From Candidatus Kerfeldbacteria bacterium (GTDB lineage: Bacteria; Patescibacteriota; Patescibacteriia; UBA10025; JAHIVO01): a stretch of DNA of 64,000 bases. This document shows positions 1,578 through 50,703 of the stretch, one piece after another. Position numbers and translations under genes: made by a program. The stretch lies in contig JACROE010000002.1 in the NCBI GenBank assembly GCA_016214565.1, positions 600,007 to 664,006 of the forward strand, written 5' to 3'. Within the stretch, counting starts at the first letter, position 1. Each line of letters starts with the position of its first letter. The notes beneath the pieces were generated by a model. It searched no databases. It was not told the DNA's origin and worked only from the letters and a program-made list of their open reading frames with translations.

Positions 1578-2306
1578 TTATTGATTTGATTTTAGCAAAT
1601 GACAACTCCAATTTTTTCTTAAATATTTTAAAATCAACAACCACGTCTGATCAATAATGTTATTTGGTGAATCAAAATCTTTTCTGATAGTCCCATTCGA
1701 TCCGATTGATCCGGAGGTAACAATACGCCAATCAATATACTGATTCTGTTTGCCTACTTTAGGAAATCGCATTCGATCATAACTTCCTGAAATTATTATA
1801 GTAGGCGGCACTCGGCCATGTAACAATTTATTTCGATAATTTCGAATAGTTTTTAAAGGGTCGCCATGATTTTTTCTCCATTTCGTTCTCGCACGTAAAC
1901 CTTCAGTTTCAGTCCAGGGTGGATATTTAGTTGGATCAATGAATCTTTCAAGTAGCTCATCTGCACAATCAATCGCCCCAACAAATCGAGCAAATGCTTC
2001 CGTAAATAAATCACGCCCATTTTCAGGTAAAAATGGTTTAATTTGTCTTATGTCATAAACCCTTATTAGATGAAGAAGAATTGTATAATGAAGCTGTGAA
2101 ATACACAAATCATTTGGCGTCTTTTGTATTGAAGATAATTCTTCATTGGATTGAAAGTGTATATCAGTAGGATTAGAGGATCTATTGGTAACTGGGGTAA
2201 CAAATGTTTGCCAAAATTTTTCGTACTCGAGAAATTCTTGAGCAATAAATAATGCATAATATTTTTGTTCATACCAGTCGCCATGTTGTTGTAATGTATA
2301 GTTCAT
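1578..2306 (-). CDS. hypothetical protein, HEPN-like Rx4H motif (RNKLLH), in AT-rich island
   Basis: 242 aa ORF in a visibly AT-rich segment; RNYRNKLLHGR fits HEPN Rx4-6H; no other recognisable domain. Confidence 0.45.
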   Translation of the reverse strand: MNYTLQQHGDWYEQKYYALFIAQEFLEYEKFWQTFVTPVTNRSSNPTDIHFQSNEELSSIQKTPNDLCISQLHYTILLHLIRVYDIRQIKPFLPENGRDLFTEAFARFVGAIDCADELLERFIDPTKYPPWTETEGLRARTKWRKNHGDPLKTIRNYRNKLLHGRVPPTIIISGSYDRMRFPKVGKQNQYIDWRIVTSGSIGSNGTIRKDFDSPNNIIDQTWLLILKYLRKNWSCHLLKSNQ

Positions 2307-2320
2307 TTGCGTACTAATTA

Positions 2321-2791
2321 TTACGATTTTCTTCCTCTTTGAGTCTCTTGATCCCTGTAATATTGGGGATTGTCACCAATAACTCGTATCAAATGATCTT
2401 TAATAATCAAATAAATTAATTTGTTGCGAAAAGTCCTGATTGGTCGAGCGGCGATCCACCCTTTATCAGTTTGTTCAGGTGAAATCAAACTTAATTCTTT
2501 TAATTTATTATCCATGACATTAAGCCAATGCCTTGCTTGGCCTCCAAAAGTTAGGGCATAATGCTCACCTTCCTTGCCATAGCGTAATGGTAATTCTTTT
2601 GATGCATTCCAAATATTAACAAATCTATCAGCGTAATAAGTGCCCCAGCCATTATCTCTAGTATTACGATTATCTTTTAATAGCCATTTGGAAATTATTA
2701 GCGCTTTAAAGATACTTGGCAGTAGTACTATGACTACCAGAACGATTACTTCCCAGAGTAAATTTTGCCAAAGCCAAATGAGTATATTCAT
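2321..2791 (-). CDS. hypothetical membrane-anchored protein (AT-rich island)
   Basis: 156 aa, N-terminal TM helix; shares the IR(T/N)(F/Y)RNKL motif with the downstream gene; 14-nt gap to the next ORF. Confidence 0.45.
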   Translation of the reverse strand: MNILIWLWQNLLWEVIVLVVIVLLPSIFKALIISKWLLKDNRNTRDNGWGTYYADRFVNIWNASKELPLRYGKEGEHYALTFGGQARHWLNVMDNKLKELSLISPEQTDKGWIAARPIRTFRNKLIYLIIKDHLIRVIGDNPQYYRDQETQRGRKS

Positions 2792-2818: not shown

Positions 2819-3772
2819 TTACCTCCCCGGCGATGATTTGAACAGCATGAGATAGGAGCCTTCGGATAGTTTGATGACGGACGGGTCGGCGGTGATATTG
2901 CCGAGGTCGCGATCCTCGAAGCGGATACCGGCTGGGGTGAAGGTCAGTCCGTCGGTGGAAGTGGCGATGCTGATACCGGCGGTGTAGAGATACCATTGGT
3001 CATTTTCGTGCCAGACGTCAGGTACTGCGCCGCCGGTGAAGGCGACACCGCGCTCGGTGAAGGTTAGTCCGTCGGTTGACGTTGCCACGATGACTTTATT
3101 TCCCTCGACATCGCCGCCGTAGAGATACCAGGTGTCGCCGACTTTTTCCACGTCAGGGTCGAATATGCCTCGTCGCTCAAACCGGATGCCATCCTCTTGG
3201 GTGAAATTCACGCCATCATAAGAAATGGCTGAGTAAATCTTGTTGGTTGGCTCGATGCCGTTGGCTGGCCGATTGATGCGGGATTCATTGATATCAAAAT
3301 AGAACAGGCGAATCCGCCCATCAGCCAGGAGTACGGGAGCTGGATCGGCGGTAGCTTTATCACCTAGGCCGGTGATGGTCAGCAGCTGCCGTTCGCTCCA
3401 GGTCTGGCCATTGTCGGTTGATTTCACCATGCCCAGCTGCTCTTTGACGCCGTCAGTGGTCACGTCCACGAAGTAGACATAGATCGTGCCATCCTTGATG
3501 ACCGCGCCCGGCACCGAGGCGTGCTCGGCCAGTATTTTCCCCGAGGGGGTCCAGCTGGTCAGAGTGGAGCCGGTGGCAAAGGATATTTTGTCGCGGTACG
3601 GCCCTTGATTCATGCCTGACCAGTTGTATTGGTTTGGGTCAGCCGCTTGCTGGTTGCTGGTTTTGGTATTGGTGGTCGCGGTGTTATTGTTGTTGTTTGT
3701 AGTTTTAGTGCAGGCAGACACGATAAAGGCGAGGCACACGATGATTCCCAAGAGGAGGATTTTTTTAGTCAT
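2819..3772 (-). CDS. BNR/Asp-box repeat lipoprotein (sialidase/glycosidase-like beta-propeller)
   Basis: Signal peptide plus Cys lipobox and poly-N/T linker; repeated SxDxGxTW/F Asp-box motifs (STDNGQTW, STDGLTFT x2, SYDGVNFT). Confidence 0.7.
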   Translation of the reverse strand: MTKKILLLGIIVCLAFIVSACTKTTNNNNNTATTNTKTSNQQAADPNQYNWSGMNQGPYRDKISFATGSTLTSWTPSGKILAEHASVPGAVIKDGTIYVYFVDVTTDGVKEQLGMVKSTDNGQTWSERQLLTITGLGDKATADPAPVLLADGRIRLFYFDINESRINRPANGIEPTNKIYSAISYDGVNFTQEDGIRFERRGIFDPDVEKVGDTWYLYGGDVEGNKVIVATSTDGLTFTERGVAFTGGAVPDVWHENDQWYLYTAGISIATSTDGLTFTPAGIRFEDRDLGNITADPSVIKLSEGSYLMLFKSSPGR

Positions 3773-3793: not shown

Positions 3794-4243
3794 TTAATCA
3801 ATTTTCTGTTGTTCCCTATAAATCGCTGCGATGGTCGCGCCGTAGGCCAGCCATTCTACCAGGCCCTGCACGGTGAAGTAAAGCAGGGCGCCGGTGGCAA
3901 TGTTTGTCATGAGGTAGAGCGTGGTCATGGGTGGGATAACGCCAATGAGCCAAGCGAATAATCCGAAGACCAAGCCTTTGCGTACGCCCTGGCCGGGGAT
4001 GCCCGAATACAGTATGGCAAAAACCCAGGCGAAGACCAGCGCCAGGGTGATATTCATGAGGAGGAGGATGGGCCAGCTGACGGGGATATCCAGGCCCATC
4101 GCTGGCGTCCATTTCCAGACGTCAGTCGGCGCCAGCCTGAAGATGTCGCCGAACAGCAGATAGCTGCCGCCGCCGATAATGAAACTCAAGAAATTAATGG
4201 CAAGACCGGCTCCAATAACCCGCCGGTAATTTATTGTTCGCAT
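3794..4243 (-). CDS. hypothetical integral membrane protein
   Basis: 149 aa, four predicted TM helices. Confidence 0.5.
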   Translation of the reverse strand: MRTINYRRVIGAGLAINFLSFIIGGGSYLLFGDIFRLAPTDVWKWTPAMGLDIPVSWPILLLMNITLALVFAWVFAILYSGIPGQGVRKGLVFGLFAWLIGVIPPMTTLYLMTNIATGALLYFTVQGLVEWLAYGATIAAIYREQQKID

Positions 4244-4380: not shown

Positions 4381-4773
4381 TTATGGCTTTTTATTATATA
4401 TCAGGGGCCCTACTGCCAGGCCGACGAATATCAGGTAGGTGCTCCACTGGCCGAAGACGGCGCTGGTCGTTTGATTGGGGATGGTAATCATCAGCAGGAG
4501 CACGGCAATTTCAATAGCCCAGACAATGCCGTTGGTGAATGCTTGCTGCATTGAGGCGGGCTTCAGCCACTGCGTCAGCCACCAGGTGCAGGCAGCCATA
4601 ACCAGGGCGACGATGATGCCGACCCACCAGTAGTCAAAGGGTTGCTCCGTGCCAGCCACGATTGAGAGAATGAAAAAGAGGATATTAGTAACGACAAAGA
4701 GCACCAGGCCAAAGAGCAGCACGATGATCCATCGTTTGTTTTGTTTTGGCTGGGGGGTGGTTGGCGAATCCAT
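4381..4773 (-). CDS. hypothetical integral membrane protein
   Basis: Hydrophobic ORF; start placed at the internal Met (MDSPTT); N-terminal Pro/Gln-rich segment. Confidence 0.45.
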   Translation of the reverse strand: MDSPTTPQPKQNKRWIIVLLFGLVLFVVTNILFFILSIVAGTEQPFDYWWVGIIVALVMAACTWWLTQWLKPASMQQAFTNGIVWAIEIAVLLLMITIPNQTTSAVFGQWSTYLIFVGLAVGPLIYNKKP

Positions 4774-4808
4774 ACGCGTTTGTTTATTAATGAAAATGAT
4801 TGATAGGA

Positions 4809-5558
4809 CTAATTGATAATTATCCAATCCTCGGGATGGTCATGGTCATTGAGCTGGGCAGCTTGCGCGCCGTTGGCAGTTTCTAGCTTACAGGGGTTCG
4901 CGTCGCGGTACTCTTTGGTATAGCTTAGGTCGCTTCGCGTTTTAATATTGTCGGAAATGTACTGATTAAATGCTTCATCAGACATGTGGTTGAAGATTGA
5001 GTCTAGCGCGCCGAAGGGTGATTCGTAGCCGTCGATAATTTTTGTGCCAGCACCAGCGGTAGCATAGACGAGATCGATGCCATTAGTGGCGACGTGGCCG
5101 ATCAGTTCACCTGCTTTTACTTTGTCGCCCTCTGAGAGCGTATCAAGCGGCACGAGGTGTTCGAAGCTAGCATTCCAGTCGCTCCCTTTTTGCCCGAGCC
5201 ACATTTCGCCCTCCAGGCCCTGGGATGGATTGCTGAAGATGCTCATTATTTCACCGTCAAAGGGTGCGTACACTTCCACCTGCTTGCCCTTGTATTCAGG
5301 TTTCAGCATGAGATAATGCTTCATGTTGCGTAGCCGCTCGCTCTCGTCCTGCGGCACCACCACGTGTCCCTGGCAACTGCGGAATTTTGAAATTTTTTCC
5401 ACTTTACTGGTATCGATGAAATTAGCGGTGAGCTCGGGCGGACCGGATGTGCCTTTATCCATTTTCCAGACAAACACACCGCCCACGCCGATGAGGAAAA
5501 TGACGATGGCTATCCACCAGAAGCGTTTGAGGAATGGTTTTTTTAGTGGGGTGTCCAA
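4809..5558 (-). CDS. secreted/anchored protein, paralog family A (LytM/M23-like hybrid-motif segment)
   Basis: N-terminal KKPFLKRFWW plus TM anchor shared with the two upstream genes; VYAPFDGEI and GDKVKAGELIGHVATNG resemble M23 beta-barrel motifs, but canonical HxxxD/HxH are not evident. Confidence 0.5.
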   Translation of the reverse strand: MDTPLKKPFLKRFWWIAIVIFLIGVGGVFVWKMDKGTSGPPELTANFIDTSKVEKISKFRSCQGHVVVPQDESERLRNMKHYLMLKPEYKGKQVEVYAPFDGEIMSIFSNPSQGLEGEMWLGQKGSDWNASFEHLVPLDTLSEGDKVKAGELIGHVATNGIDLVYATAGAGTKIIDGYESPFGALDSIFNHMSDEAFNQYISDNIKTRSDLSYTKEYRDANPCKLETANGAQAAQLNDHDHPEDWIIIN

Positions 5559-5568
5559 ATTTTATTTA

Positions 5569-6087
5569 TTATGGGACAAAATTAATAAAGGGATCGTCTT
5601 CATTATAGTTTATTTCCTTACCTTGGCCATCGATACAAGTAACTTTTGCGTAATCTTTACCGTCAATTTGCTTTCCAGCTTTAGTTATATTACATGTAGT
5701 CGGTGGGACTAAATGACTGGCTGTGTCACGTGGTTTCTTATCGAAAATTGTAATATAGTGGCTGCAGAGGCCCGTAACATATCCTTCGCTATCGTGGTGC
5801 AGATTATCCCAAGCACGACCTATGGGGAAGGCAAAGTCGGGTAGGTAGCAATCATCTGATTCACAGACGCTATTCTCGCGGCAGATTGAGCCCCCATCAG
5901 TGGTTTTCTGGAGGCACTGGCGGGACGGCTGGTCGTATGAACGGCCAGGCTCAGTTTCGCATTGCATACGTTCGCGCCAGGCGATGCCAAATGGGCTGAT
6001 GAAGAGGGAAGTACCAGCTATGGCGAAGATGATGATAAGGACCAACCAGTAGCGTTTGAAAAAAGAAGTATGTGGCTGAACGTCCAT
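5569..6087 (-). CDS. Cys-rich secreted/anchored protein, paralog family A
   Basis: Start chosen at MDVQPHTSFFKRYWL to match the paralog N-termini; 8 Cys in the mature part. Confidence 0.5.
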   Translation of the reverse strand: MDVQPHTSFFKRYWLVLIIIFAIAGTSLFISPFGIAWRERMQCETEPGRSYDQPSRQCLQKTTDGGSICRENSVCESDDCYLPDFAFPIGRAWDNLHHDSEGYVTGLCSHYITIFDKKPRDTASHLVPPTTCNITKAGKQIDGKDYAKVTCIDGQGKEINYNEDDPFINFVP

Positions 6088-6091
6088 ATAT

Positions 6092-7381
6092 TTATCTTTC
6101 GTACTCAACAAAATTTTCGCCTAGGTCCCAGGGGCCGGTACCGCAACGGCTGCTTGAATTTTTCTTGATGCGCAATGTTTCCGCGGTAGGCATGGTTGCC
6201 AGAATACTCATGCGGGCGCCACCTCCACGATAGCTTGTCGTGTCATAGCAGTAGATCGTGCCGTCAGCGGTGACCTGGCTGAAATCCCGATTGATTGTCC
6301 CACTGGAGGCCGGGACAAAGCTATAAAAACCGCTTTCGATGCCTGCGCTGCTTGCCGATGTTCCGACTGAGAAAACTTGTTTGTCGGTTTGGATATTATC
6401 ATAGGCGAGTGCGAGATGCGGGTCTTCACCCTGGAGCTGACCCTGTAGATCATAGAACCACACGCCCTGGGCGGTTCCGACTATGTCCACATCCACCGTG
6501 CCACAGCGCGGCTCTTTCGTCCGCTTGCCATTATCCGGCCCGATTATTAAGTCGTAGTACTGATCTTTTTGTTCAGTCGGGTAGTAGTCCAAAAAGCACG
6601 AAACGAAATTTCGATCTGTGGACCATCGATCTGGGTTGGCGCGATTTACTTGTGGTTCGCGGTAGTCACTTAACCAGATGTCGAGCATGGCTGAACGTCC
6701 ATCGCCGACGGTGCCGATTTCCTCACCGGCATTAACTTCGATGTTCATCCCCATATAGCTACAGCTGCGATAGGTCTTGCCGCCTGTTTCATATTCATTA
6801 CAATTCTTTTCCAGCGCGTCCATTTCCGCCTGAATGTTCTGCGCAATTGATCCGATGTGTCCGAATTTTCCTTTCACCTCTTTGCACGGTGAGAATTCGA
6901 TGGAGTAATCAGTGATTCCGCCACTTTCCTCACTCGACTGGACGCCGACGATCCACATATCCGCTGGTGCGATCAGTGGTTTCGCATTTGATTTCAATCC
7001 TGGGGTGAAATATTGCGCGTCGGTGGTTGCCACATACAGGTGATCCGTGGGCAGGGTGTGGCCGGTCGGATTCAGATTACCCAGTGCCGTAATTTGGTAG
7101 AAATCTCCGTCTTTGAGGGGAAACACAGTGAAGAGCTCCTTGGTAGTATTGCACGAAGGGAGCGAGTCTTGCGGTTGGGTTAATTCATTTGTTGTATTGG
7201 TATTTGTTTGCGCCGTTTGATCTGTCGGCGAATCAACAAAGGTGTTTACTGAAGTATTGGTATTATCCGCATTTTTTTGTGGGATGTTCATGACAATAAT
7301 AAGCACTACCACGGGGATCAGTAGTATCCACCAGAAGCGTTTGAGGAATGACTTTTTTTGCTTGGCAGGAGGCATGTCCAT
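6092..7381 (-). CDS. secreted/anchored protein, paralog family A (M23-like segment VNAGEEIGTVGDG)
   Basis: 429 aa; N-terminal KKSFLKRFWW plus TM; T/N-rich linker; tandem with the two downstream paralogs. Confidence 0.55.
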   Translation of the reverse strand: MDMPPAKQKKSFLKRFWWILLIPVVVLIIVMNIPQKNADNTNTSVNTFVDSPTDQTAQTNTNTTNELTQPQDSLPSCNTTKELFTVFPLKDGDFYQITALGNLNPTGHTLPTDHLYVATTDAQYFTPGLKSNAKPLIAPADMWIVGVQSSEESGGITDYSIEFSPCKEVKGKFGHIGSIAQNIQAEMDALEKNCNEYETGGKTYRSCSYMGMNIEVNAGEEIGTVGDGRSAMLDIWLSDYREPQVNRANPDRWSTDRNFVSCFLDYYPTEQKDQYYDLIIGPDNGKRTKEPRCGTVDVDIVGTAQGVWFYDLQGQLQGEDPHLALAYDNIQTDKQVFSVGTSASSAGIESGFYSFVPASSGTINRDFSQVTADGTIYCYDTTSYRGGGARMSILATMPTAETLRIKKNSSSRCGTGPWDLGENFVEYER

Positions 7382-7520
7382 ACCATAGTATCATCCCTCT
7401 TTTTGTATGAACTGGCAAATAGTTGGTTTGCGTCAGGCGGTCTTGACAAAGTGCGGCGGAGGTGGTATCCTGCTGTGTTAATTGAGGATGTTCATTCGTA
7501 TATAACCATGGAGGTATCAA

Positions 7521-7823
7521 ATGACCACAATGGTCGTCTGTCGAGTTGAGGGGACTAACATTTGTAGTATCCCTAACTGTCATCAGCAGTTTGGTGATGG
7601 TGACACGGTCTGTGGTGGCGGACACGAAATCGGTCAGGAATATCCTATCGATTTTCCCAGCCCTACCACTGAGTTGCCAGTTCAGCAGCCTGCAGACAGA
7701 TCCACTGCGTCTGTCGAGTGCTACGCTGATGGTAATAATTGCTCCATATGCCATCAGATGTTTCCTGAAGCAGATGATACGTGTCCGACTGGACACACGA
7801 TTGGTCAGTTCTACACCAAGTAG
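7521..7823 (+). CDS. small Cys/His-rich protein with internal tandem duplication
   Basis: TTGACA-17-TATCCT promoter and GGAGG RBS upstream; two repeats of C-x2-C-H-Q-x-F-x4-D(T)-x-C-x2-GH-x-IGQ-x-Y. Confidence 0.5.
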   Translation: MTTMVVCRVEGTNICSIPNCHQQFGDGDTVCGGGHEIGQEYPIDFPSPTTELPVQQPADRSTASVECYADGNNCSICHQMFPEADDTCPTGHTIGQFYTK

Positions 7824-39424: not shown

Positions 39425-40786
39425 GTGGATAAGCAGAAATGTGCTGGATGTGCCGTTGGGTGCGTGCCGTTTGATTCGGTGCCGCATCTGTGTCACATCG
39501 AGACGACTTATCAATGCAATTCGGATTGTATCTTTTGTTACAATCCGGAGCGCGAAAAACCGATCAATACTTCATTGATCGATCGGGTCGTACGATCCGT
39601 GGCTGCCAGTCAGATACCGCATGTGTATCTGATTGGGGGTGAACCGAGTATGCTCGGCGTCGAAAAGCTCAATGAGTACATTGAGCTCCTCAGTGATCAT
39701 TCGTCAGTAACGATCGTTACCAACGGGCGAATCACTCTGCGCGGCATTTCGCCGCGTTTGGCCTGCTTCGGCGTACCGCTCCACGGAGCCACAGCCGAAG
39801 CGCATGATTTCATCACGCGACGACCTCATAGTTTCGATCAAGCGCTTCGCTCGATTGATTACTATGTGGGCCAGGGACATGATGTACGTTGTATTCCGGT
39901 TTTGACGGGGTATAACGCGCATGAGATCTACGATATCATTCGTATTGCCGTGGAACATGGCATGGAATCGATTTTCGTGGATCGGTATGAAGATGGCGGC
40001 ATCGGCGCGCAGCATTCGGTCAATGACCCGCGGTTGAAGCCAACCATGGATCAGTTCCGGGATGCGGTAACGCAGATGTTGCGAGCGCGGGAAGATTTTC
40101 CTCAGCTTGGTGGTCGGGTCGGATTTGGCACGGCCATCCCGTACTGCATTGATGAACGGCTGATTCGGGAAGGCATGACTGCCAATTGTGGCGTGGGGTC
40201 TACATTCTGCGCCATCAACCCATCGGGTGACGTCCGGCTCTGCAACCAATCACAACTGGTGTTTGGTAATGTGTTGCTGGAATCGCTTGAGGCGATTTGG
40301 CAGCAGCGCTCACTCGATACGTTCCGCGATTTGTCGTGGGTCGAGGAGCCGTGCCGCTCGTGTCCGTTGCTGGACGAATGCGTCTGTGGCTGCAAGGTCG
40401 ACGCAAACTGTTCGGATCGATTCTGTATCGATTACGCAGTACGTGGGTTGATCAAGCCGCCCATCGATGTCAGCGTGATACAGCCGACTGCTACCACGGA
40501 GGTTTCGTTTCCTGAAGCCTATCGTCAGTTTTTCGTCAATCGCTACACGAAGATACTCGATCGCCATCCGGAACGATTCTTGGTGACGCGGTATCAGACG
40601 GTGACATTGAATGACGGCGCACTCGAAGTGCTTCGAGCTATCATTGACAAGAGGTTATTGACTGAACAATCGGTCATTACCTATTTTGCCGATGAGATCC
40701 CCGAGCCGGAATTGCGGCGGGCTATCTCGCTGTTTATCCGGGCTGGCGCACTTGATGAAACGGAGGTGACTCATGCCGGTACATGA
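39425..40786 (+). CDS. radical SAM/SPASM-domain enzyme with C-terminal PqqD-like RiPP recognition element
   Basis: GTG start with AAAGGAG RBS; CNSDCIFC (Cx3Cx2C); downstream Cys cluster CRSCPLLDECVCGCK (SPASM/twitch); C-terminal LNDGALEVLRAIIDKRLLTEQSVITYF...LFIRAGAL resembles PqqD/RRE. Confidence 0.75.
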   Translation: MDKQKCAGCAVGCVPFDSVPHLCHIETTYQCNSDCIFCYNPEREKPINTSLIDRVVRSVAASQIPHVYLIGGEPSMLGVEKLNEYIELLSDHSSVTIVTNGRITLRGISPRLACFGVPLHGATAEAHDFITRRPHSFDQALRSIDYYVGQGHDVRCIPVLTGYNAHEIYDIIRIAVEHGMESIFVDRYEDGGIGAQHSVNDPRLKPTMDQFRDAVTQMLRAREDFPQLGGRVGFGTAIPYCIDERLIREGMTANCGVGSTFCAINPSGDVRLCNQSQLVFGNVLLESLEAIWQQRSLDTFRDLSWVEEPCRSCPLLDECVCGCKVDANCSDRFCIDYAVRGLIKPPIDVSVIQPTATTEVSFPEAYRQFFVNRYTKILDRHPERFLVTRYQTVTLNDGALEVLRAIIDKRLLTEQSVITYFADEIPEPELRRAISLFIRAGALDETEVTHAGT

Positions 40787-42260
40787 TGTGCATTGGGAAA
40801 TCACTAACGCGTGCAATCTGCGCTGTTTACACTGTGTTCAGTGTTCAGGTGCGCCACGTACTGGTGAGCTCAATCCGGACGAAGCGGTGCAGATCATCGA
40901 TCGATTAGCAGCAGCAGGCGTGCAGCGTATTTGCTGGACCGGCGGAGAACCGTTTGTCCGGCGTGATTTCGCGACGCTGCTTCAGCAGGCGCATCAGGCA
41001 GGCATTGTGCAAGCCGTCATCACTAACGGGTATCTGGTTCGGCAAGGGCAGCTCATGATGCTTCAGCAATTGGCCATCCCGCTCGGCGTCAGCTTGGATG
41101 CGACGACTGCAGAATTGCATGATGCCCTGCGCGGTGACGGGTCATTTGACCGGGCGATGCAGACGATTGTGTCTGCGCGAGCGCAGGCCATACCCGTAAC
41201 GCTGTATGCAACGGTTACTCGGGGAAATATCCACGAGTTGCCATCGCTCATCGCTCTCGCCAAGCACTTTGATTGCGGTATTCATGTCAATGAAGTGTCA
41301 TTGGCTGGTCGCGCCGAAGCGATTTGGCCCCGTCTGGCACTGAATGAAGCGTTGCGCGAACAGCTGACCGTGATGGTTGCCGATGCAGCCCGCGAGCATT
41401 TCGGTGAAACGCCGGAGTGGGCTCCGGACGGATGCTGGGCTGACGGCTCGGCTGTCTACCTTCGCTCTGATGGTCAAGTGTTCCTCTGCAGTGAGCAGGT
41501 GCAGTATGCACACAGCGCCGCACTGGGGCACATTCTGGAGCATTCACTTGATGAACTGCTTCAGACCGACTTGATCAGTCAGTGTAGTGGCAGCGCATGT
41601 TCGTATCGCGTATTATCAAGTCCGCGCGTGACGATGATTATCAATCAGCCGATCAGGTGCCCGCTGGTTTCCGTTGAGTCGAAGTTAGAAACCCTGGACG
41701 CACTCAATCAGGCACTCGACGCGTTGTATGCGCCGTTTGCCGATGTGTGTGTCGCGTGCCAGGATAAGTGTTGCCAGGGATTCGTCTGGCTGATGCCTGA
41801 GGAATTGACTCGTCTCCAGCAGTGTGAGGTCGATACGGTCGAAGTGAATGACGCCGCGTCGTTCATCCATTCTTTTCCTGAAAAAGAAGACGGTTCAATC
41901 GACGTATCGGTTCCGTCGCCGCTCTGTAGTCAGCTCTGTTCGCTCCAGCCGCGTCGCTGCCGAGTGTATGCCGATCGTCCTTTTTCCTGTCGCCTCTACC
42001 CGATTGGGTTGGAGGTGCGGGAAGATGGCATGCTGGTCTGGGCACTTCATCAGGATTGTCAGATTACTCGATATCTGGGGAGCGAGGGACTGCTCGAGGA
42101 ATTCGAACGGCGAGCGCTGCAGATTCTGGACAGCATGTGTCCGGAATTGTATGCTAGTATTATTGAAGCGTATCGCAAGGTACATATTCTGATAACTTTC
42201 CCCCTTGGGGGAAATAACATTCGCACTTTAAAGGAGGTGGTTAAGCTTGTCAAAGTGTAA
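40773..42260 (+). CDS. radical SAM enzyme fused to a C-terminal YkgJ-type (CxxCxxxCC) Fe-S/zinc-chelating domain
   Basis: 14-nt overlap with the upstream gene; CNLRCLHC (Cx3Cx2C); C-terminal CVACQDKCCQGF...CRVYADRPFSCRLYP resembles the YkgJ/UPF0153 family. Confidence 0.7.
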   Translation: MPVHDVHWEITNACNLRCLHCVQCSGAPRTGELNPDEAVQIIDRLAAAGVQRICWTGGEPFVRRDFATLLQQAHQAGIVQAVITNGYLVRQGQLMMLQQLAIPLGVSLDATTAELHDALRGDGSFDRAMQTIVSARAQAIPVTLYATVTRGNIHELPSLIALAKHFDCGIHVNEVSLAGRAEAIWPRLALNEALREQLTVMVADAAREHFGETPEWAPDGCWADGSAVYLRSDGQVFLCSEQVQYAHSAALGHILEHSLDELLQTDLISQCSGSACSYRVLSSPRVTMIINQPIRCPLVSVESKLETLDALNQALDALYAPFADVCVACQDKCCQGFVWLMPEELTRLQQCEVDTVEVNDAASFIHSFPEKEDGSIDVSVPSPLCSQLCSLQPRRCRVYADRPFSCRLYPIGLEVREDGMLVWALHQDCQITRYLGSEGLLEEFERRALQILDSMCPELYASIIEAYRKVHILITFPLGGNNIRTLKEVVKLVKV

Positions 42261-45664: not shown

Positions 45665-47866
45665 ATGTCATCAAACGAAACTATTATTTCACTCAGGGGC
45701 ATGCACTGTGCCAGTTGTGCCCAGCTTATCGAGCGCCGGTTGCGAAAAGTTCCGGGCGTGGAGCATGCCATGGTTAATTATGGGACAGAGCGGGCGCATG
45801 TGACTCACGCGTCAGATGCCGTCGCCCCTGAACAATTGATCAAAACCGTGGTTGATGCCGGCTACCAGGGGACTATTCTCGATCGAGAACATAACACCGA
45901 AGCAGTCGATAAGGAAAAAGAAATTCAAAAAATCCGTCGTACGTTTTGGATCAGTCTGGTGCTGGCTATTCCGGTTTTGATATTGAGCATGGGGATGAAG
46001 ATTGTACCGCAGATTGAGGAAATTCCATATCGCGAGTGGTTGCAGTTTCTCTTTGCTACCCCGATCCAATTTTGGGCTGGCTGGCAGTTTTATCGAGGGA
46101 CCTGGGGTGCGCTGCGTGCTCGCACGGCTAACATGGATAGCCTGATCGCGCTCGGGACATCGACTGCCTATGTCTATTCATTATTTGTGGTGGGCGGTCT
46201 GATTGATGGCGAGGTTTATTTCGAAATTGGTAGCATCCTGATTGCTTTTGTCTTACTCGGCAAATGGCTCGAGGCGCGGGCGAAAGGCAAGACCAACGAG
46301 GCGATTAAGAAATTGATGGGATTAGCGCCCAAGACTGCCATTGTTATCCGTGATGGCGTCGAACAGGAGATTGCCCTGGATATGGTGCAGGTTGGCGATG
46401 TAATACGCGTCAAACCAGGGGCTAAAATCCCGGTGGATGGCACGGTCGCTGAAGGATCTTCTTCAGTGGATGAGTCTATGGTGACGGGAGAAAGCATTCC
46501 CGTGGAGAAGCATGCAGGTGATCCAGTTATTGGTGGCACCCTGAATATCCACGGGTCATTTACTTTTACCGCAACGAAGGTCGGGAAAGAAACGTTGCTC
46601 GCCGGCATTATACAGCTCGTAGAGCAGGCACAAGCATCAAAAGCGCCGATCCAGCGATTTGCCGATCGAGTCTCAGCTTATTTTGTGCCGACGGTTATTG
46701 CTATTTCTTTGATAACATTTATATCGTGGTATTTCTTGGCTGGTCAGGATTTCGTTTCTAGTTTATTAGCCTTTGTGGCCGTACTGGTGATTGCTTGCCC
46801 CTGCGCACTCGGCTTGGCTACTCCAACGGCCATTATTACCGGCACGGGGTTAGGCGCGAGCCATGGCATCCTGATCAAGGGCGGGGAAGCACTTGAGGCA
46901 GCGCGGAAAATTGATACTGTCGTATTTGATAAAACCGGCACCCTGACCCACGGCAAACCAGATGTCACTGATATTCACGCCACGAATCGAGGTCAGGAAC
47001 AGTACGTACTGACGGTCGCTGCTTCACTGGAGAAACAATCAGAGCATCCGCTCGCAGAAGCAATCGTGCGGAAAGCGCACGAGGAGCAGTTCGCCTTGTT
47101 TCCTGTTATTGATTTCGCGGCAGTCCCCGGGCATGGCGTGAAAGGCGTGATCGACGACAAACCAGTGTATCTGGGGAATCGGAAGTTAATGAAACAGATT
47201 GGCGTATCCTACGTTGAGGCCAGCGAGGCAATCGATGCGCTGGAGCATCAGGGTAAAACAGTTATGCTGTTAGCCGTCGGTAAAGCCCACGTTGGATTTA
47301 TTGCCGTGGCTGATACGGTGAAAGAAAGTTCCCGTGAAGCAATCACCGCATTACAGAAAATCGGTATTGGTGTACTGATGATCACCGGTGATAATGCACA
47401 GACCGCCCAAGCGATTGCCCAGCAGGTGGGCATCACTCGAGTGCTATCTGAAGTATTACCAAAAGATAAAGCGCACGAAGTAGTGGAATTGCAGCGGACC
47501 GGCGCACGGGTTGCTTTTGTCGGAGATGGCATTAATGACGCACCAGCGTTGGCTCAAGCGGATTTGGGAATCGCTATCGGCTCAGGCACGGATGTGGCAC
47601 TGGAAACCGGACAAATGGTTCTTGTTAAAAATGATTTACGCGACGTGGTGCGCGGTATCAGTTTATCCCGTCGCACATTTCGAAAAATTGTGCAGAATCT
47701 ATTTTGGGCATTAATTTATAATGTTGCAGGCATTCCTATTGCCGCGGGAGTCTTCTTCCCCATTTTTGGTTGGCAATTGCGGCCAGAATTGGCGGGAGCG
47801 GCGATGGCATTATCCAGTATCTCAGTGGTTTTGAATTCGTTATTATTAAAACGATGGCGACCATGA
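45665..47866 (+). CDS. copA: copper-translocating P1B-type ATPase
   Basis: N-terminal HMA (GMHCASCA), CPC transmembrane metal site, DKTGTLT phosphorylation motif, GDGINDAP hinge. Confidence 0.95.
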
Positions 47867-47900
47867 CATTATTTTCATTAATTAACGTATTATTAAGAGT

Positions 47901-49019
47901 ATGAATCTTTGGGCAATATTTATTACCGGGTTAACCACGGGCGCGCTGACCTGCCTGGCAGTTCAGGGAGGACTTCTCGCCAGCGTTATCGCCGGCCAGA
48001 AACAGAAAGAATTAGAGGAGACTGAAGCGCCAGCTCGCGGTATATCCCGTTTTATCAAACGGCAAGACTGGATGTCAGTTGGGTTATTCTTAGTGGCCAA
48101 GCTGGGCAGCCATATGGTGGTTGGTTTTCTGTTGGGCGCGCTTGGTTCCGTGATTACCCTCAGCCTGGGCATGCGCGTCACCTTTCAGATTATTGCCGCG
48201 CTTTTTATGATAGCCGCAGCGATGAATCTATTGAATGTCCATCCAATATTTCGCTATATCATGTTCCAGCCGCCCCGCTTCATGCAGCGCTGGGTGCGCA
48301 ATTCAGCTCGGGGGCAGTCGTTCTTTACTCCCATTATGGTCGGTGCACTGACTATTTTTGTGCCGTGCGGCGTCACACAAGCGATGGAGGTTTTGGCGAT
48401 TACTTCTGGTAATCCGGTTCAAGGTGCACTCATCCTAGGCGTGTTTGTACTTGGTACCGTGCCGCTTTTCGGTGGCATTGGGTTGATCACCGCTAAGCTA
48501 GGTGAATTATGGCGCGGCGCGTTTCTGAAGGTTACCGCGGTTGCTTTGCTGCTCATGGCACTATACAGTATCAATGGCGCGCTAGTCGTTTTGGATGTAC
48601 CCTTTTCAGCTCAGCGCTTAGCGGCGGCGTTTGCCAAACAGTCGACAAATGAATCGTCTGATGTTAATACAAATATTAAAACCAACAGCAATAGTAATTC
48701 AAATACTAAGGCTTGGCAGTCTTCCAAGAGCCAGGATTCAGCACAACAGGATTCAGTGCAGAAAGTCACCATCAATGTACAGAATAGTGGTTATAACCCA
48801 AAAAAATTCCAAGTGAAAGCCGGTACGCCAGTCGAATTAACCGTTAAAACGAACGGGGTATACTCGTGCGCAGCGGCATTTACTTTCCGCGCTTTCAATA
48901 TTAATGAAATATTGGAACCAACGGATTCTCAAACATTCCGCTTTACCCCTACTAAGCCGGGAAAGTACACGTACTCGTGCTCAATGGGGATGTATTCGGG
49001 AGTTATGGAGGTTATTTAA
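47901..49019 (+). CDS. CcdA/DsbD-like transmembrane thiol-reductant transporter fused to C-terminal cupredoxin-like domain (CSMGMYSG)
   Basis: TM Cys pair (TCLAVQ, FVPCGVT) typical of the CcdA/DsbD family; S/N-rich linker; C-terminal domain paralogous to 45288-45659. Confidence 0.55.
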   Translation: MNLWAIFITGLTTGALTCLAVQGGLLASVIAGQKQKELEETEAPARGISRFIKRQDWMSVGLFLVAKLGSHMVVGFLLGALGSVITLSLGMRVTFQIIAALFMIAAAMNLLNVHPIFRYIMFQPPRFMQRWVRNSARGQSFFTPIMVGALTIFVPCGVTQAMEVLAITSGNPVQGALILGVFVLGTVPLFGGIGLITAKLGELWRGAFLKVTAVALLLMALYSINGALVVLDVPFSAQRLAAAFAKQSTNESSDVNTNIKTNSNSNSNTKAWQSSKSQDSAQQDSVQKVTINVQNSGYNPKKFQVKAGTPVELTVKTNGVYSCAAAFTFRAFNINEILEPTDSQTFRFTPTKPGKYTYSCSMGMYSGVMEVI

Positions 49020-49137
49020 GCGCTATGACTGAAACCATTACACTCTCTATTATTGGAATGCACCCTGTGCTATGCTCGCCATGCTCGCAAGTACAGGGCG
49101 AGTTGAGTCGACGGGAAAATGTTTCACTTCTAACAAG

Positions 49138-49350
49138 CGTATGATGACTACAATAACCTTAAACATTCTTGGTATGCACTGCACTAGTTGCAGCATGAAT
49201 ATCGATGACGCACTTGAAGAGTTGCCGGGCGTTGAGGCAAGTAAAACGAGCTATGCACGCGCCACAACTGAAGTGACGTATGATCCGGCGCAGGTTTCCC
49301 AGGAAAAGATCGCTCAGACTATCCAGGACGTCGGATACCAGGTAGCGTAG
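49138..49350 (+). CDS. copZ: heavy-metal-associated (HMA) copper chaperone CopZ-like
   Basis: GMHCTSC metal-binding loop, ferredoxin-like HMA fold length (70 aa). Confidence 0.75.
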   Translation, partial: RMMTTITLNILGMHCTSCSMNIDDALEELPGVEASKTSYARATTEVTYDPAQVSQEKIAQTIQDVGYQVA

Positions 49351-49452
49351 CGTCAGCGAAACGCGCCGCTGGTTTGCTGGCTTTATCTTTGATCATGATG
49401 TTGTGGTATTGCCTGGGAGGGAGTATACTAAGAACGATTATTAGTTATTAGT

Positions 49453-49836
49453 ATGCGCATTATCGGGAAAATAGTTCTCGTGCTTGTTCTGCTCAGTTTG
49501 ATCATGCCGTTTGTGAAAACCGCGTGTGATTTGACATTGCTCAATAATCTCGAACAATATCATGCGCCGATGTGCCATCTGGAGGATCTCAGTCAAACGT
49601 TTGGCCATCTTCGTCAATTTCAGCAATTCAATGCAGCAGTGGTTGAGCCAATGAATCTGATGTTGTTATTGATTCTGTTTATAGCGGCAGTGAGTATTTC
49701 AATGACGGCGCGCGTGCGTCAGGCGTTGATGCTACCGGCAGATGAGTATGCGTTATGGAGTGGACATATGAAACCATGGGATCCGTTGCGGTTTGCTTTT
49801 TCTCATGGACGGTTGCGCCGGGTGGACTACGAGTAA
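49453..49836 (+). CDS. hypothetical membrane protein
   Basis: 127 aa, two TM helices. Confidence 0.4.
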   Translation: MRIIGKIVLVLVLLSLIMPFVKTACDLTLLNNLEQYHAPMCHLEDLSQTFGHLRQFQQFNAAVVEPMNLMLLLILFIAAVSISMTARVRQALMLPADEYALWSGHMKPWDPLRFAFSHGRLRRVDYE

Positions 49837-49863
49837 TTATTAAGAACAGTCCTCAGATGAGCT

Positions 49864-50703
49864 ATGGCAGTACATGGCTTGATTACTATTATTGAAAAAA
49901 TAAACTACATTATGGAAACACCCGAAGAGAAAAAAAGAGAATCTTTGCTTGAGTTGCTTGGTCCGAAGCGAGCCTTCATTTTTGGCATCATTGCTATGTT
50001 CATGACGGTTTCGACCATTGGCTTCTATATCTTCTTATTTACTGGTTGGGATGGCGCTTCGAGCAAGACATTCGGTACGACGACAAACGTAGATAAGACT
50101 GCCGATACGAATACCACTATAACCGACACCAATGCAGCCCCAACCACAGTCACCGTGGCTGACATTACGGCTGACGATCATATCGTGGGGAATTTAGACA
50201 CAGCTAAAGTCGTGGTGGTTGAGTACTCTGATCTGGAGTGTCCTTTCTGCAAACAGTTCCACCCGCGCCTGGAGCAACTATCCGTTGATTTCGGCGATGA
50301 GGTTGCTTGGGTTTATCGTCATTTCCCGCTTGAGTCGCTGCATCCGAAAGCACCACGCGAGGCTGAGGCATCTGAGTGCGCTGGAGAGCTCGGTGGCAAT
50401 GATGGATTCTGGGCATTTATTGATAAGGTGTATGAAGTGACTCCATCTAACAACGGATTGGAGGACAGTAAACTTCCGGAAATTGCCGGTCAGATTGGCC
50501 TTGATGTAACGAAATTTAACGATTGTTTGTCGAGTGGGAAATACAAAGATAAAGTACAGTCTCAATATGACGACGCGGTAAATGCTGGCGGTACCGGCAC
50601 TCCGTATTCAGTCGTGGTTGGCAAAGACGGTACCACAATTCCGATCAATGGCGCACAGCCCTACAGCAGCGTGAAGAGCGCCGTCGAGAGCCTATTGAAT
50701 TAA
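49864..50703 (+). CDS. DsbA-like thioredoxin-fold thiol:disulfide oxidoreductase, membrane-anchored
   Basis: N-terminal TM, T/N-rich linker, CPFC active site; start may be 49912. Confidence 0.7.
   Translation: MAVHGLITIIEKINYIMETPEEKKRESLLELLGPKRAFIFGIIAMFMTVSTIGFYIFLFTGWDGASSKTFGTTTNVDKTADTNTTITDTNAAPTTVTVADITADDHIVGNLDTAKVVVVEYSDLECPFCKQFHPRLEQLSVDFGDEVAWVYRHFPLESLHPKAPREAEASECAGELGGNDGFWAFIDKVYEVTPSNNGLEDSKLPEIAGQIGLDVTKFNDCLSSGKYKDKVQSQYDDAVNAGGTGTPYSVVVGKDGTTIPINGAQPYSSVKSAVESLLN

Follow-up and report, generated by a model that had tools for sequence, protein, structure and literature searches.

Three adjacent genes on the minus strand of a 64,000-nucleotide stretch of a Candidatus Kerfeldbacteria genome (contig JACROE010000002.1, positions 600,007 to 664,006; hereafter the window) were found to encode proteins, termed A, B and C, that begin with a common module of approximately 35 residues. 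The presence of this module (the tag) on A, B and C was confirmed to be real. It is interpreted as a portable signal-anchor or signal-peptide cassette that is conserved beyond the needs of membrane topology and possibly serves as a class-specific sorting signal, a reading that we consider probable, though by no means secure. We infer the sorting role from three features: the conservation lies far above what topology would need, the cargo is unrelated, and only a subset of the exported proteins is tagged.

Gene C (positions 6092 to 7381, minus strand) has an ATG start and encodes 429 residues beginning MDMPPAKQKKSFLKRFWW, identical to NCBI HZC01_02995, whose contig of 1.116 Mb belongs to a metagenome-assembled genome. 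The product comprises the N-terminal tag and transmembrane (TM) helix, a low-complexity linker, a predicted LytM-like domain and a C-terminal beta domain, and has eight conserved cysteines. Gene B (5569 to 6087 counted from its ATG, minus strand; the mechanically called open reading frame (ORF) reaches 6111, beyond this start) encodes 172 residues beginning MDVQPHTSFFKRYWL, in which the module is followed by an orphan ectodomain with eight cysteines. Gene A (4809 to 5558, minus strand) has a TTG start and encodes 249 residues beginning MDTPLKKPFLKRFWW, the module preceding an ectodomain of predicted LytM fold. C and B are separated by 4 nt and B and A by 10 nt, and the same gene calls were found for this region in an independent public assembly. 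An earlier note, made from the window sequence, had described one of the three proteins as cysteine rich; this holds for B, but C has the same number of cysteines.

Composition and specificity of the module

The three N termini (MDMPPAKQKKSFLKRFWWILLIPVVVL, MDVQPHTSFFKRYWLVLIIIFAIAG and MDTPLKKPFLKRFWWIAIVIFLIGV) have in common the motif F-[LF]-K-R-[FY]-W-[WL] followed by a hydrophobic helix. Scored against a 36-position hidden Markov model of the module, residues 1 to 33 of A (5460 to 5558, minus strand, with FLKRFWW at 5514 to 5534) gave 52.2 bits, residues 1 to 34 of B (5986 to 6087, minus strand, with FFKRYWL at 6043 to 6063) gave 47.6 bits, and residues 1 to 37 of C (7271 to 7381, minus strand, with FLKRFWW at 7328 to 7348) gave 50.2 bits. 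Beyond these three, no score exceeded 9 bits in the window or 12 bits in the 5.2 kb adjoining it on the left. In the six-frame translation of the window, F[LF]KR[FY]W was present solely at these three N termini. Approximately 25 of the 62 larger ORFs of the window have an N-terminal hydrophobic segment, and the motif was found in A, B and C alone; the untagged ORFs with such a segment include two lipoproteins and an anchored solute-binding protein. Chance or generic composition was excluded as the source of the shared motif by the six-frame scan, the profile scores and the ORF comparison.

These data uphold the claims of the earlier note that three adjacent minus-strand genes share an N-terminal motif and that the stub is a specific conserved element rather than a generic signal peptide, at 47.6 to 52.2 bits against at most 12 bits elsewhere in approximately 69 kb. 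The mature parts had been called divergent, and BLASTP among A, B and C indeed aligned the N termini only.

In general the module opens with Met-Asp and some polar residues, continues with a basic stretch, usually K-K-(S/P), and the invariant core F-Φ-K-R-(F/Y)-W-(W/L), and closes with a hydrophobic helix of 18 to 24 residues that bears no charge. It appears to be undescribed. None of the Pfam models matched it, an NCBIfam scan of A, B, C and the isolated 37-residue module at E≤10 yielded nothing above noise, all matches lying below 14 bits, and nothing relevant was found in a full-text literature search for the motif strings.

Predicted topology

A, B and C are proposed to be exported envelope proteins in which the module would act as an N-in/C-out signal-anchor inserted by the Sec/signal recognition particle (SRP)-YidC route, or as a cleavable signal peptide where a lipobox or an AxA site follows. 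This is suggested by the following data. Lys and Arg residues directly precede the hydrophobic helix, and in tagged proteins the hydrophobic stretch after the motif runs to 20 uncharged residues (median), with a Kyte-Doolittle hydropathy averaging 2.44. In the AlphaFold2 (AF2) model of A, residues 10 to 33 form one continuous helix, from which the motif was deduced to be the first turn of the TM helix on its cytoplasmic face. The features of a type II signal-anchor of the Sec/SRP-YidC kind, namely N-side positive charge, a helix of approximately 18 to 24 residues and an extracytoplasmic C-terminal domain, are thus predicted for the module from sequence and model. The Lys and Arg residues would keep the N terminus cytoplasmic, and the Phe-Trp-Trp cluster would lie at the cytoplasmic membrane interface. 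The earlier description of the proteins as secreted needs correction, as they look membrane anchored and not freely secreted, A with its continuous modelled helix in particular. B may be cleaved after a putative A-I-A site (A-I-A followed by G, read by eye); AxA is absent from A and C.

An extracytoplasmic location of the cargo was deduced from the cysteine sets of B and C, from the lipoprotein signals of many C homologues outside the candidate phyla radiation (CPR), and from the DsbA- and DsbD-like genes of the window. The latter were observed at 45665 to 50703 (plus strand), together with the gene for a copper-type P-type ATPase that has an HMA domain; the DsbD-like product is a membrane protein carrying a fused cupredoxin-like domain, and the DsbA-like one is a thioredoxin. 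This Dsb-like cluster is relevant to disulfide formation in the cysteine-rich exported proteins B and C.

Two other explanations of the motif turn on its residues and on the helix that follows. The first is a twin-lysine signal of the twin-arginine translocation (Tat) type, in which P-K-K-S-F-L-K would mirror S/T-R-R-x-F-L-K and the LytM-like and propeller proteins would be exported folded. In its favor, KKSFLK matches RRxFLK position for position, and the Tat route typically carries folded metallo-enzymes and lipoproteins. Against it, the basic pair varies (NK, HK, NT, HT, RT, PK and QK occur; A and C have KK, B has HT), while the downstream K-R-F-W-W is conserved. Furthermore, the hydrophobic region is of TM grade rather than moderately hydrophobic, A and C have no AxA site, and the cysteine-rich ectodomains suggest oxidation after Sec export. 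Kerfeldbacteria, which we take to belong to class ABY1, would also fall outside the CPR classes for which Tat has been reported. These are, in freshwater CPR, Microgenomatia, Paceibacteria and Saccharimonadia (PMC9166423). A Tat-type signal was judged very unlikely.

The second is a lipid-sensing interfacial helix resembling that of MinD, that is, a basic and aromatic in-plane segment that would prefer anionic or curved membrane (poles, septum or a host-contact zone) and would need no protein partner. The membrane-targeting sequence of Escherichia coli MinD is KGFLKRLFGG (PMC5471200), and K-S-F-L-K-R-F-W of the tag is identical to it at 5 of 8 positions and conservatively replaced at 2 more; the motif also coincides in position with the cytoplasmic end of the TM helix. 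The MinD sequence is, however, C-terminal, with no TM helix after it, and AF2 places the motif and the TM segment in the same continuous helix, with no separate in-plane helix. The hydrophobic moment of 0.34 was reached by 57% of shuffled sequences (the MinD sequence itself gave 0.27), which weighs against this explanation and against the sorting cassette alike. We regard the MinD-like explanation as improbable.

Distribution and cargo of the module in other genomes

When the 36-position profile was searched against 1.84 billion representative proteins, 40 were found at E≤1e-3, 34 of them matching within the first 25 residues. This count is an undercount, since clusters formed at 50% identity can have an untagged representative. 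The exact DNA pattern for KKSF[LF]KRFWW was found in six JGI metagenome contigs only. A degenerate DNA scan of 185,579 genomes gave mostly out-of-frame chance matches among the matches listed, and a handful of Patescibacteria loci were usable; a word-indexed protein search with the N-terminal profile returned 8 short fragments, failed to recover the training proteins and gives no census. The module is thus real but rare, being found in a minority of Patescibacteria genomes. The consensus of the tagged N terminus was M-[DE]-x(2-10)-[QP]-P-K-K-S-F-[LFI]-K-R-F-W-W-[ILVM] followed by the TM helix, with F, R, F, W and W conserved in at least 90%.

The module marks only part of each protein family. 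Approximately 6 of 120 listed C homologues and 3 to 4 of 47 aligned A orthologues were tagged, most orthologues of A and C at 50 to 63% identity beginning with an ordinary anchor of unrelated sequence, for example MKK and then a TM helix; the tag was also found on distant A-like proteins approximately 30% identical to A. At one locus (L121; loci in other genomes are designated in this way), the C orthologue, 61% identical, is untagged and a C-like paralogue two genes away is tagged. In the protein P0123 the motif decays gradually while the TM sequence is kept.

The cargo of 36 clustered tagged sequences comprised 15 A-like LytM proteins, 12 C-like proteins and 5 others with Pfam M23 matches at or below the cut-off, the remainder being one TSP3/PsbP-like protein, BNR/sortilin-like propellers and several orphans including B. 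One tagged PQQ/BamB-like propeller was found. Portability was clearest for a tagged propeller protein of 333 residues at locus L117, beginning MPVKNSNKSFLKRFWWFAILITVFIFGAAC, which is 68% identical over 302 residues to an L105 protein with an ordinary lipoprotein signal (MPKKLIILLSLICLVFFVSAC). The lipobox Cys is present in both, so that the tag can belong to a cleavable signal, and a targeting role is indicated rather than a role in the mature protein. Comparison across genomes has thus shown the module, at the level of sequence, to be a discrete, homologous and portable cassette that is placed on unrelated predicted ectodomains and marks only some exported proteins.

Two further observations concern related strings. 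At L080 (2699 to 3199, minus strand) the motif of one tag is interrupted by an insertion (MDTQPKKSFLNPTPPRLRWVRKSWWLIII), the halves PKKSFL and R-K-S-W-W being kept. Three Ala/Arg-rich, actinobacterial-looking proteins (P0262, P0267 and P0271) have RGFFRRFWWVF just before a TM helix, following a long cytoplasmic tail.

The level of selection was deduced from the codons. Those of the motif vary freely between genomes (TTC/TTT; CTC/CTT/CTA/TTG; AAA/AAG; CGC/CGT/CGA/AGA/CGG), which indicates a constraint on the peptide and not on DNA or RNA. An RNA- or DNA-level element was ruled out by these codon differences and by the limited identity of the 5′ ends, as DNA identity among those of A, B and C is confined to the motif. 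A and C have in common an identical patch of 26 nt at the motif, for which P is approximately 0.003 from codon usage alone. The patch fits micro gene conversion or retained ancestral codons rather than recent duplication. Recent tandem duplication was ruled out, the identity being limited to the motif and A and C each having their own orthologues at 55 to 68% identity. The suggestion of the earlier note of a recent duplication with diversifying selection therefore fails: A and C belong to separate old families, each with many orthologues.

The same data bear on an explanation by shared ancestry only, in which the module would be the ancestral signal-anchor of one bitopic LytM-like superfamily, copied to neighbours such as B by 5′-end recombination or gene conversion, with ordinary insertion as its function and a generic topogenic constraint as the cause of its conservation. 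In its favor, LytM-like proteins make up roughly 30 of the 36 clustered tagged sequences, remote homology links the A and C families (see below), the 26-nt patch fits gene conversion, and the motif of P0123 decays with the TM sequence retained. Ordinary anchors, however, diverge completely among orthologues that are 50 to 63% identical, whereas the seven-residue core is near-invariant across ectodomains that are approximately 30% identical or unrelated. In addition, the module replaces a functional lipoprotein signal on the 68%-identical orthologue at L117 as compared with L105, it occurs on propellers and orphans, and its codons are not conserved between genomes. Shared ancestry only is a possible but rather doubtful explanation.

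Clustering of tagged genes and the four-TM neighbor

Tagged genes were found to cluster. Four tagged ORFs, one of them frameshifted, lie within approximately 4 kb at L105, three at L080 (including the insertion variant) and two at L061. The frameshifted gene (L105, 2298 to 3813, minus strand), which stands in the tandem array of four, is a tagged C-like gene split across two frames, owing to a frameshift or pseudogene or to an assembly error. A conserved A-B-C trio was rejected, as tagged orthologues of C (L127) and of A (L128) stand alone.

Immediately downstream of A in the window, a protein of 130 residues with four TM segments is encoded at 4381 to 4773 (minus strand). At four independent loci (the window, L117, L080 and L105), members of this family were found no more than 8 kb from tagged genes, and at three they are directly adjacent to them. 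At L117, two copies (6043 to 6444 and 6461 to 6868) stand directly upstream of the tagged gene; at L080 the homologue (4748 to 5134) is 19 nt upstream of the tagged gene, and at L105 (7077 to 7472) it is approximately 3 kb from the tagged array. The features conserved in the family are W-W, Q-A, P-N-G and F-G-Q-W...Y-L-x-F-x-G...G-P. The four-TM protein was found at none of six untagged Patescibacteria loci, which is a small control. A reading as a signal-arrest-release endolysin with its holin was rejected: the TM helices are strongly hydrophobic, the neighbors scanned are housekeeping genes with no phage families, and the holin match was noise (E=0.033). A PF20603 'Bact_hydrolase' protein of approximately 160 residues was observed near tagged genes or A orthologues at L117 (5484 to 5969), L122 (66 to 551) and L128 (258 to 743), and is absent from the window.

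In the proposed scheme, the module would also serve as a class-specific signal for sorting or co-localization, recognized either by a membrane partner common to the tagged proteins or by the lipid surroundings. The four-TM neighbor is the only candidate partner seen, its candidacy resting on gene neighborhood at the four loci. A more specific form of the idea makes the module the recognition signal of an undescribed, Patescibacteria-restricted sorting system with the four-TM protein as receptor or sorter, which would gather LytM-like, propeller and cysteine-rich proteins at one site of the envelope, for example the division site or a host-contact zone. This was put forward as a speculation to which we assign a low probability.

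Several points weigh against the broader interpretation of the module as a portable cassette with a possible sorting role. Most of the cargo is LytM-like, and the distribution could largely reflect descent within one expanded superfamily. The enrichment of the motif was established for only approximately 69 kb of the source genome. The four-TM protein is near tagged genes at only 4 of approximately 15 tagged loci, and has no recognizable catalytic or binding features, its Pfam matches being at noise level. Similar N-terminal strings occur sporadically in Oscillospiraceae, in Marinilabiliaceae, in HlyD-like proteins and in actinobacterial-looking Ala/Arg-rich fragments, and FLK[SR]FWW-type strings were seen inside TM segments of GspF/PilC. 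As these are unrelated phyla and proteins, the pattern may in part be a generic juxtamembrane solution or a product of convergence. The proposal of the earlier note that the stub is a sorting or secretion tag thus stands in part. It agrees with the unrelated ectodomains, the replaced signal on the 68%-identical orthologue, the marking of a subset and the clustering of tagged genes, but no sorting machinery was identified.

Predicted folds of A, B and C

The family of A comprises approximately 105 homologues, mostly of about 240 residues and from Patescibacteria in those cases with a named organism. A matched Pfam PF01551 (Peptidase_M23) at 30.3 bits against a cut-off of 28.7, over profile positions 14 to 76 only, and a PDB profile search with the family found LytU at E=0.0012. 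The AF2 model of A had a predicted local distance difference test (pLDDT) score of 93.5 and gave 38 PDB matches at E≤1e-3, with LytM/M23 proteins making up all of the 50 matches listed; the best was SpoIIQ (3tuf_B), followed by lysostaphin, LytM, EnvC and DipM. Invariant in the family are C62, H65, H81, H134, D162, H191 and C223. The sole HxH of A (residues 239 to 241) is C-terminal and not conserved, and the position usually taken by HxH has, by eye, an invariant Asp in the form I-D-L.

For C, 210 family matches were obtained, the named sources being Patescibacteria, DPANN-type archaea and some other bacteria. Members labelled Woesearchaeota, Nanoarchaeota, Micrarchaeota and Diapherotrites were observed; DPANN-labelled archaea are not expected to make peptidoglycan. 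Pfam and PDB sequence searches, including a PDB profile search with the C family, gave no match. The AF2 model had a pLDDT of 84.7, with residues 68 to 429 confident. Its top six Foldseek matches in the PDB were M23/LytM structures (6smk, 6ue4 and 8c0j among the best; probability 1.0, E approximately 5e-3), and the fold matches include EnpA, ShyA and EnvC, over approximately 160 to 200 columns and with a TM-score relative to the target of at most 0.61. The region of predicted LytM/M23-like fold covers about residues 90 to 250 (6632 to 7114, minus strand) and has neither HxxxD nor HxH. Toward its C terminus the ectodomain continues as a second beta domain. In a 56-sequence alignment of the family, H108, H114, H175, D234, D239 and eight cysteines are invariant, and HxH was present in none of the 56 sequences. 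As in the family of A, its usual position appears by eye to be occupied by an invariant Asp, here in the form L-D-I.

The LytM beta-sandwich fold is thus predicted by the models for both A and C. Of the two zinc motifs, HxxxD is lacking from A and C, and a conserved HxH was found in neither family. Since both catalytic motifs are missing, it was concluded that A and C are not canonical M23 peptidases, and the earlier report of two LytM/M23-like proteins holds at the level of fold for A and C but not as to canonical peptidase identity. A and C are proposed to act on the cell wall. They could be hydrolases whose active site departs from the canonical one, or else LytM factors like EnvC and SpoIIQ that have no catalytic activity; since each family keeps an invariant set of His, Asp and Cys residues, metal may still be bound.

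Comparison of the A and C families by hhalign gave a probability of 87% (E 4e-6, 58 columns), which points weakly to a distant relationship of the two. When the mature part of B was compared with the A and C profiles, only the tag aligned. The earlier reference to three paralogues is accordingly acceptable for A and C as distant relatives, while the mature part of B has no detectable relation to either. The ectodomain of B had no Pfam or NCBIfam match, no relatives of B were found in JGI metagenome contigs, and the identical 172-residue protein is present in the searched protein library as the representative P0239.

Other genes of the window

The three tagged genes are followed, in the same direction, by those for the 130-residue four-TM protein, a polytopic membrane protein of 149 residues (3794 to 4243, minus strand; weak DUF6789 match) and a BNR/GH43-like lipoprotein of 317 residues (2819 to 3772, minus strand) with an ordinary signal and the lipobox VSAC. 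An ectodomain of the BNR type, the same broad kind as that of this lipoprotein, is tagged in another genome. Genes C, B and A and the three downstream genes are probably co-transcribed. A sigma-70-like promoter match lies upstream of C at 7390 to 7418 (minus strand; TTGCCA-17-GATGAT, 9/12) and is a weak consensus match only. The cluster ends with two co-directional ORFs of 242 and 156 residues (1578 to 2791, minus strand), which had no Pfam match and lie where the G+C content is slightly lower (0.46).

Divergent from C, a Cys/His-rich ORF of 100 residues (7521 to 7823, plus strand) contains two internal repeats that resemble zinc ribbons, of the form C-x(2,4)-C-H-Q-x-F-x(4-6)-D-(T)-x-C-x(2,3)-G-H-x-I-G-Q-x-Y; Pfam and NCBIfam scans of this ORF gave no match. 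An adjacent pair of radical SAM genes, the first with a SPASM domain, was observed at 39425 to 42260 (plus strand) and may be a peptide-maturation pair. The remaining window carries housekeeping genes of a small genome, such as those for RNase J, UvrA, UvrC, GroEL, DnaG, RpoD and BipA.

Significance and comparison with known systems

A life attached to other cells is assumed for Patescibacteria, and very little is known of the organization of their envelope. A conserved portable tag would give a sequence handle for listing functionally linked surface proteins (wall-active LytM-like proteins, propellers and orphans) and would also help to find the machinery that reads it. The A and C families, both widespread, may represent either a new active-site chemistry or regulators that lack catalysis. 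Were the tag merely an inherited anchor, the finding would shrink to an ordinary paralogous cluster of envelope genes.

The closest parallels to the module are the YSIRK-G/S and KxYKxGKxW signal peptides of Gram-positive bacteria, which likewise have a short conserved sequence in the n- and early h-region, mark a subset of the exports of a lineage and stand on unrelated cargo. The module differs from these in sequence, stands mostly before an anchor that is not cleaved, occurs in some Patescibacteria only and matches no NCBIfam or Pfam model. In comparison with the Tat signal, the K-K-S-F-L-K register agrees, but the module has no conserved twin arginine and has a TM-grade hydrophobic region. 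The C-terminal sequence of MinD, likewise a basic and aromatic peptide, resembles the module in lying at the cytoplasmic surface of the membrane; MinD is peripheral, whereas the module is continuous with a TM helix.

With regard to the ectodomains, the bitopic or degenerate LytM proteins SpoIIQ, EnvC, NlpD and DipM resemble A in having a cytoplasmic stub, one TM helix and a LytM fold from which the zinc motifs are missing. They differ in that A and C keep invariant His, Asp and Cys residues of their own and that C has the extra C-terminal beta domain. With peptidase family M23 (lysostaphin, LytM, ShyA and MepM), A and C would share the fold and the extracytoplasmic location, and A marginally passes PF01551; HxxxD and HxH are nevertheless absent from A and C and unconserved in their families, and C has no Pfam or PDB sequence match. 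Relative to these systems, the new elements are an export or anchor tag that is conserved and confined to one lineage, and two non-canonical families of predicted LytM fold.

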